64,000 bases of DNA from Escherichia coli (GTDB lineage Bacteria > Pseudomonadota > Gammaproteobacteria > Enterobacterales > Enterobacteriaceae): NCBI RefSeq assembly GCF_013122565.1, contig NZ_CP053258.1. The stretch is one strand, 5' to 3'. Position 1 is the first letter of the stretch; every line of letters starts with the position of its first letter. The notes beneath the pieces are model-generated. The model made no database searches and was not told the origin of the DNA. It saw only the letters and a list, made by a program, of their open reading frames with translations. The translations under genes and the position numbers were made by a program. Below, piece after piece: positions 54,992 through 55,742 of the stretch.

Positions 54992-55708
54992 ATGCGTCCA
55001 GCAGGCCGTAGCAATAATCAGGTGCGTCCCGTTACCCTGACTCGTAACTATACAAAACATGCAGAAGGCTCGGTGCTGGTCGAATTTGGCGATACCAAAG
55101 TATTGTGTACCGCCTCTATTGAAGAAGGCGTGCCGCGCTTCCTGAAAGGTCAGGGCCAGGGCTGGATCACCGCAGAATACGGCATGCTGCCACGTTCTAC
55201 CCACACTCGTAACGCGCGTGAAGCGGCGAAAGGTAAGCAGGGTGGACGCACAATGGAAATCCAGCGTCTGATCGCCCGTGCGCTTCGCGCGGCAGTAGAT
55301 TTGAAAGCGCTGGGTGAGTTCACCATTACACTGGACTGCGACGTGCTTCAGGCTGATGGTGGCACGCGTACCGCTTCGATTACGGGTGCCTGCGTGGCGC
55401 TGGCAGATGCGCTACAGAAGTTGGTGGAAAACGGCAAGCTGAAAACCAATCCAATGAAAGGGATGGTAGCCGCGGTTTCTGTCGGGATTGTGAACGGCGA
55501 AGCGGTTTGCGATCTGGAATACGTTGAAGACTCTGCCGCAGAGACCGACATGAACGTAGTGATGACCGAAGACGGGCGCATCATTGAAGTGCAGGGGACG
55601 GCAGAAGGCGAACCGTTCACCCACGAAGAATTACTTACCTTGTTGGCTCTGGCCCGAGGGGGAATCGAATCCATTGTAGCGACGCAGAAGGCGGCGCTGG
55701 CAAACTGA
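54992..55708 (+). CDS. rph: ribonuclease PH, full length 238 aa (not the K-12 rph-1 frameshift allele)
   Basis: Start [14 protein letters not shown]; the frame runs uninterrupted to a stop 5 bp before the pyrE attenuator hairpin. Confidence 0.92.
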
Positions 55709-55713
55709 TTTTT

Positions 55714-55742
55714 AAGGCGACTGATGAGTCGCCTTTTTTTTG
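55714..55742 (+). terminator. pyrE attenuator: hairpin AAGGCGACTGATGAGTCGCCTT followed by T8
   Basis: Classic intrinsic terminator in the rph-pyrE intergenic region, directly after the rph stop. Confidence 0.75.

Follow-up and report, generated by a model that had tools for sequence, protein, structure and literature searches.

Full-length rph and the pyrE attenuator in a non-K-12 Escherichia coli strain

The rph-pyrE locus of E. coli raises the question of whether a strain carries the one-base rph-1 deletion, what the state of rph implies for the expression of pyrE downstream, and how much it tells about the strain background. The locus was studied in a window of 64,000 nucleotides (the whole stretch of DNA that was analysed, from contig NZ_CP053258.1 of assembly GCF_013122565.1). 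This window almost certainly holds a wild-type rph-pyrE bicistronic operon, with an intrinsic terminator serving as the pyrE attenuator, from a non-K-12 E. coli. Such an operon with its attenuator is an already known system, to which the window adds annotation and strain typing.

The rph-pyrE operon and its attenuator

The features of the locus are as follows.

54866-54991, plus strand: yicC-rph intergenic region (putative rph promoter, 5' leader), 126 bp, base-for-base the same as in MG1655
54992-55708, plus strand: rph, full-length RNase PH, 238 aa and TGA (ORF call, translation, profile matches)
55601-55610, plus strand: first copy of a 10-bp direct repeat, GCAGAAGGCG (repeat search)
55658-55662, plus strand: G5 run, intact, from which K-12 rph-1 has lost one base (MG1655 alignment; EPI300 also has G5)
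55677-55679, plus strand: out-of-frame TAG, a premature stop if one G is lost (in-silico deletion), 34 nt upstream of the hairpin
55684-55693, plus strand: the 10-bp direct repeat again (second copy), 83 bp downstream of the first copy (repeat search)
55706-55708, plus strand: rph stop codon TGA, 5 nt ahead of the first paired base of the hairpin
55714-55735, plus strand: pyrE attenuator hairpin, AAGGCGACTGATGAGTCGCCTT (fold, terminator scan, same as in MG1655)
55734-55741, plus strand: T8 tract, forming the U-run of the intrinsic terminator; two T at its 5' end are paired with AA at the stem base
55761-55766, plus strand: Shine-Dalgarno-like GAGGAG, 7 nt before the pyrE ATG (sequence reading; same in MG1655)
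55774-56415, plus strand: pyrE, orotate phosphoribosyltransferase, 213 aa and stop (ORF, TIGR00336, PF00156)
56423-56446: 10-pair hairpin between the convergent pyrE (plus strand) and slmA (minus strand) (terminator scan, minus-strand call)

The rph reading frame extends from the ATG at 54992 to the TGA at 55706-55708 (717 nt; ORF listing and sequence reading). An earlier reading made from the sequence alone (the sequence-only reading) had rph encode the full 238 aa and stop just upstream of the hairpin, and the open reading frame with its translation and the 5-nt distance agree with it on both points. The product matches the RNase PH equivalog profile TIGR01966 with 380.8 bits (cutoff 141.5; residues 2-236 aligned to positions 1-235 of the 236 in the profile), and both exoribonuclease domains were found with Pfam (PF01138, RNase_PH, residues 10-140, and PF03725, RNase_PH_C, residues 157-222). 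The solved structure 1r6l (Ribonuclease PH) matches residues 2-237 (E = 3.7e-104), and there are matches to eight other RNase PH chains. The protein is thus predicted to be a phosphorolytic 3' exoribonuclease trimming tRNA 3' ends. Its C-terminus is intact, in contrast to the ...ARGESNPL* tail in MG1655, and with listings in 97,315 blocks of the public collection the protein is, residue for residue, among the commonest public alleles. Of 5,424 complete E. coli genomes, 4,535 match the 96-nt window segment comprising the rph end, the attenuator and the pyrE start at 99 % identity or more; because of this conservation and the RNase PH equivalog score, rph is not a chance feature. Upstream of the gene, a perfect TATAAT is present at 54950-54955, and no -35/-10 pair in 54866-54991 passed the consensus promoter scan.

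For the rph-1 site, MG1655 positions 3813000-3819000 were aligned with the window. The G run reads CCCGAGGGGGAATC in the window and CCCGA-GGGGAATC in MG1655, i.e. G5 compared to G4, and the alignment of the rph 3' end that had been proposed as a check thus showed the rph-1 deletion to be absent. With G5 and a 238-aa product the window lies outside the rph-1 allele. MG1655 itself is annotated with a 'truncated RNase PH' of 228 aa ending in ...ARGESNPL, in keeping with the earlier statement that the common K-12 laboratory strains carry the truncating rph-1. In-silico removal of one G from the window led to a 228-aa product that has the MG1655 C-terminal tail and retains A138 and T216 of the window.

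The attenuator stem, AAGGCGACU / AGUCGCCUU, has 9 pairs, 5 of them G-C, and a 4-nt GAUG loop. Alone the hairpin folds at -14.2 kcal/mol, and it was reported by the terminator scan at 55714-55735; the hairpin is short, and the fold z-score of the entire 86-nt stretch is only -1.45. No Rfam family was found over the attenuator at the gathering threshold. Every base from 55663 to 55788, including the hairpin, the T-run, the Shine-Dalgarno-like motif and the pyrE start, is the same as in MG1655, and the attenuator is therefore the sequence used in the published experiments. Having the same bases as the K-12 attenuator, it is intact, as the sequence-only reading had it. That reading had described a hairpin plus T8: the hairpin stands, whereas the T count needs correction, since there are 8 T in all and 2 are already inside AAGGCGACTGATGAGTCGCCTT, which leaves the hairpin and 6 more T. 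Similarly, the range of 54992-55742 given there is right at its start and ends one base beyond the T-run.

The pyrE product matches the TIGR00336 pyrE profile with 240.6 bits (cutoff 106.8) and PF00156, and the gene name pyrE is given in the annotation of all matching genomes. The rph and pyrE genes are on the same strand with a spacer of 65 nt, in which a consensus scan found no sigma-70-like promoter, consistent with co-transcription of the two genes. The hairpin at 56423-56446, with a putative role for pyrE, is likely the end of the operon. The locus is flanked by yicC and dinD to one side and by slmA, dut and coaBC to the other, which is the usual E. coli arrangement; the orientation of the neighbourhood is opposite to that of the MG1655 map.

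In the accepted mechanism of pyrE attenuation, known for K-12 and attributed to Bonekamp et al. (1984) and Jensen (1993) in passages of PMC2784333 and PMC11148124, scarce UTP slows RNA polymerase, so that the ribosome on the rph end stays close to it. At the TGA, 5 nt from the hairpin, this ribosome occupies the 5' arm, the terminator does not form and transcription proceeds into pyrE. With plentiful UTP the polymerase leaves the ribosome behind, the hairpin forms and most transcripts stop at the U-run. With rph-1, the ribosomes stop 34 nt before the hairpin, which then always forms, leaving pyrE under-expressed. The footprint of a ribosome extends some 10-15 nt past the P site. One terminating at 55706-55708 would accordingly be expected to cover part of the 5' arm, whereas one at 55677-55679 would not. 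For the present strain, both the UTP dependence and the shielding by ribosomes are inferred from the literature. As a weaker possibility, synonymous changes in the last 30 rph codons (55612-55638) may alter the speed of the ribosome, and hence the set-point of the attenuator.

The consequences of losing this coupling are described in passages of PMC11148124, PMC2784333 and PMC6941894, where the rph-1 frameshift uncouples translation from the attenuator and lowers orotate phosphoribosyltransferase, which leads to partial pyrimidine starvation; the earlier claim that rph-1 lowers pyrE expression by polarity is in line with these accounts. Growth is restored by mutations that return the stop codon to the vicinity of the hairpin or past it, of which a recurrent 82-bp deletion is the most familiar, and pyrE up-regulation was undetected in two strains with this deletion (PMC2784333). 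The GCAGAAGGCG repeat pair is reported to flank and mediate the 82-bp rph-pyrE deletion in laboratory-evolved MG1655 (PMC2784333); in the window the copies are 83 bp apart because of the extra G.

Some variation was seen at the attenuator in other genomes. The 96-nt attenuator segment is covered to less than 80 % in 17 of the 5,424 genomes. The match of the attenuator query to NZ_AP045825.1 (strain 23CRST050) breaks off at position 51, where the T-run ends (approximately window 55740), and the record has two such places; some strains may have an insertion directly after the attenuator. The human-gut metagenome contig ERZ919578 has a hairpin 3' arm that lacks a C (GTCGC-TT, at about position 3741 of locus L002, corresponding to window 55732), which reflects either a faulty assembly or a natural variant of the attenuator.

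Stop-to-hairpin geometry across species

The position of the rph stop relative to the hairpin was compared in 80 rph loci, one per species, in each of which the rph stop, the pyrE start and a hairpin with T-run were located. The numbers of loci with a hairpin and T-run after the rph stop are given below, with order assignments taken from record titles and the window included in the Enterobacterales count.

Enterobacterales: 34 of 38, starting 4-13 nt after the stop
Vibrionales: 14 of 15, starting 4-13 nt after the stop
Aeromonadales: 3 of 4, starting 4-13 nt after the stop
Pasteurellales: 0 of 7
All other orders: 2 of 17, with starts 3 and 12 nt past the stop

Taken together, the first three orders have the hairpin and T-run at this distance of 4-13 nt in 51 of 57 species. 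At loci with the element the spacers between rph and pyrE are 49 to 348 nt long, and the stems are unrelated between groups (GGCGAC/GUCGCC, AGCGACC/GGUCGCU, AUAGCUCC/GGGGCUAU and ACGCGGC/GCCGCGU). RNAalifold on 52 aligned segments recovered the stem, with double-sided changes in 5 of 6 pairs. When the window's 9 pairs were scored in the 52 species, 89.5 % of cells were paired compared to 72.7 % in shuffles (reached by 0 of 500), a percentage that is inflated because the 52 segments were pre-selected for having the hairpin; the independent figures are the per-order fractions. With the same 9 pairs, 68 cells were changed on both sides compared to 23.4 in shuffles, affecting 6 of the 9 pairs, and the covariation score was 0.437 compared to 0.161 in shuffles (again reached by 0 of 500). 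Slid registers gave scores of at most 0.160 and at most 61 % of cells paired.

The element is not found everywhere. In Pasteurellales, Pseudoalteromonas and several other Alteromonadales or marine Gammaproteobacteria, only 8-24 nt separate rph from pyrE and no hairpin lies between them (loci L058, L061, L063, L070, L077, L079-L081, L088, L093, L097, L101, L102 and L106), and the attenuator is thus lineage-restricted or was lost there. It is possible, if somewhat short of probable, that an rph stop placed 4-13 nt short of an intrinsic terminator, with pyrE beyond it, is a conserved design in Enterobacterales, Vibrionales and Aeromonadales. If this is true, translation-coupled pyrE attenuation is far more widespread than the demonstrated cases of E. 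coli and Salmonella.

The hairpin could also be a plain terminator of rph, with pyrE transcribed from its own promoter and no translation-coupled attenuation. The structure is that of a textbook intrinsic terminator, and since terminators just past stop codons are common, geometry alone cannot separate the two readings. However, the 65-nt spacer contains no promoter-like site, and the region has the same sequence as the K-12 region for which attenuation and the polarity of a moved rph stop are shown in passages of PMC2784333 and PMC11148124. In addition, the stop-to-hairpin distance stays within 4-13 nt in the 51 of 57 species, over three orders, despite spacers of 49-348 nt. We therefore regard a plain terminator as very improbable for this locus, and favour the pyrE attenuator.

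Strain background of the window

The sequence-only reading had taken full-length rph and the intact attenuator to show a non-K-12 background. The background is indeed non-K-12, but the inference fails, as several K-12 lineages are rph+. EPI300, a K-12 cloning strain of DH10B ancestry, has an annotated 238-aa rph with G5 and zero differences from the MG1655 rph once the G is restored. JM83, JM109 and XL1-Blue are listed as rph+ in PMC11148124, where this was used to trace their derivation from K-12. Because such K-12 strains exist, rph+ sets the strain apart from the MG1655/W3110 lineage only, and not from K-12 overall; it is divergence and gene content that establish the non-K-12 background. 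The other part of the claim, that full-length rph is a marker of strain background and no novelty, is correct, as the marker is a known one.

Compared to MG1655 and EPI300 the window rph has 18 substitutions: 16 are synonymous, and the other two alter the protein (V138A and I216T). The K-12 rph nucleotide allele is thus not the one present. Identity to MG1655 is approximately 98.2 % over the neighbouring 4.8 kb. Among 5,424 complete genomes the best identity is at most 98.8 % over the rph locus and at most 98.6 % over 40000-64000. The K-12 gene content around selC, with yicS beside nepI and ilvN beside uhpA, was not found in the window. Judged from the rph divergence and gene content, the background of the window is non-K-12. 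Identity to E. albertii at the locus is 93 %, and it is also 93 % to a divergent species representative labelled E. coli; the comparison places the window in E. coli in the strict sense. A Shigella origin would be disfavoured by the intact genes and the lack of obvious insertion sequences in the window.

Origin from an rph+ K-12 derivative (DH10B, EPI300 or the JM109 lineage) or from an rph-1 revertant would be compatible with G5 as such, since rph+ K-12 strains exist. Against it, the window differs from the K-12 rph+ allele at the 18 positions and 2 residues while EPI300 and MG1655 differ in nothing besides the G, and the alignment refutes the idea. No complete genome, K-12 strains included, has more than 98.8 % identity over the locus, and both the approximately 18-kb insertion with iatC, eilA and type III secretion genes and the 498-aa ORF beside uhpA are absent from MG1655. 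A K-12 derivative or revertant can hence be set aside with very little doubt, and the window is considered to come from a non-K-12 strain.

The frequency of rph-1 was determined with a 96-nt MG1655 segment centred on the deletion, for which at least 99 % identity over the 96 nt amounts to an exact match. The exact haplotype occurred in 167 of 5,423 complete E. coli genomes, and the 40 of these 167 that were listed are all K-12 laboratory strains (MG1655 derivatives, W3110, BW25113, J53 and HMS174). From the haplotype counts and the common RNase PH allele it follows that full-length rph is the norm and rph-1 a laboratory oddity. The 58-nt rph 3' haplotype of the window had no exact match in a collection of one genome per species, so that the genome it comes from is no species representative. 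It is hardly credible that the fifth G arose by a sequencing or assembly error in the homopolymer, rph being truly frameshifted: homopolymer runs are the commonest site of indel errors, but G5 is the normal state and the K-12 deletion haplotype occurs in only 167 of 5,423 genomes, the 238-aa translation product ranks among the commonest public alleles, and 16 of 18 substitutions are synonymous, as in a gene under purifying selection.

Several further lineage markers were considered. The YicC protein of the window is a very common allele and is therefore uninformative on lineage. V138 and I216 were rejected as K-12-private residues, since the comparison loci L002-L011 had been chosen for encoding the exact protein of the window and the argument would be circular, and six window SNPs were rejected as 'private' because this comparison set is too small. 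An indel-free alignment of 33 kb to NZ_CP048605.1 raised the suspicion of an artificial, substitution-only mutation of a real genome. This was ruled out by the clustering of differences in iatC, by indels at either end of the alignment, by the 16 of 18 rph changes being synonymous, and by an assembly from a public read set that is identical at 7,133 of 7,133 positions. As this assembly, SRR11451224, is identical at all 7,133 positions of window 21480-28612, the window sequence is natural.

Elsewhere in the window, an insertion of approximately 18.4 kb lies between nepI and yicS (12821-31178), where MG1655 has a gap of 40 bp. Its genes, named after the collinear NZ_CP048605.1 annotation, are listed here together with features around selC and at both ends of the window.

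77-1573, plus strand: 498-aa ORF just upstream of uhpA, annotated 'hypothetical protein' (ORF listing)
13022-23863: iatC, inverse autotransporter of 3,613 aa
23915-25612, minus strand: eilA, HilA-like regulator
25815-27164: SipD/IpaD-like
27208-28338: 376-aa hypothetical
28351-30132: SipB-like
30380-30877: SycD-like chaperone
35119-35280: rhuM gene fragment beside selC (collinearity with NZ_CP048605.1)
35359-35453, minus strand: selC tRNA-Sec, a classic island integration site
63327-63365, plus strand: JUMPstart RNA element (Rfam RF01707, 55.2 bits; Rfam scan)

At least 80 % of 11001-36000 is covered in 66 of 5,426 complete genomes, the best of which is 95.6 % identical. The middle of iatC differs from the closest genome by 6-16 % per kb, compared to 1-2 % in the flanks, and an exact look-up of the 3,613-aa IatC protein gave no record. 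The EilA protein of the window is found on only three public contigs. The Logan contig SRR11451224_152 (L108) is identical to window 21480-28612 at 7,133 of 7,133 positions, and GCA_018578885.1 is 99.8 % identical; a lineage carrying this EilA has already been sequenced, but the set of complete genomes does not include it. Within the window, selC itself has no large island attached.

For the 498-aa ORF at 77-1573 neither Pfam nor NCBIfam gave a family. The ORF occurs in 444 complete E. coli genomes, and MG1655 has ilvN-ilvB at the same place. Positions 1-2400 of the window are 99.8 % identical to several genomes, compared to the at most 98.6 % over 40000-64000, and the window is therefore a recombination mosaic. 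The top matches covering 40000-64000 have waaA among their annotated features.

Comparison with known systems

The source strain would be expected to have an active RNase PH and a normally regulated pyrE. Because both are predicted, partial pyrimidine starvation in minimal medium is not expected, unlike in MG1655, W3110 and BW25113.

The rph-1 allele of those three strains has the same locus and G-run as the window, but its product is 228 aa and its stop lies 34 nt from the hairpin, whereas the window has a product of 238 aa and a stop 5 nt from the hairpin. With the K-12 rph-pyrE operon and its UTP-sensitive, translation-coupled attenuator the window shares the genes, their order and strand, and the yicC-rph intergenic sequence. 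The stop-to-hairpin position is that of the rph+ K-12 allele, and the rph gene differs from that of K-12 by 18 substitutions with two residue changes, A138 for V and T216 for I.

Among the rph-pyrE spacers of other Gammaproteobacteria (loci L027-L106), those of Enterobacterales, Vibrionales and Aeromonadales share a hairpin and T-run followed by pyrE; stems and spacer lengths differ. The E. coli pyrBI leader follows the same logic, as at low UTP the polymerase is slowed and the ribosome close behind it keeps the intrinsic terminator from forming. In pyrBI, however, the ribosome translates a dedicated short leader peptide, whereas in rph-pyrE it translates the end of the full-size, functional rph.
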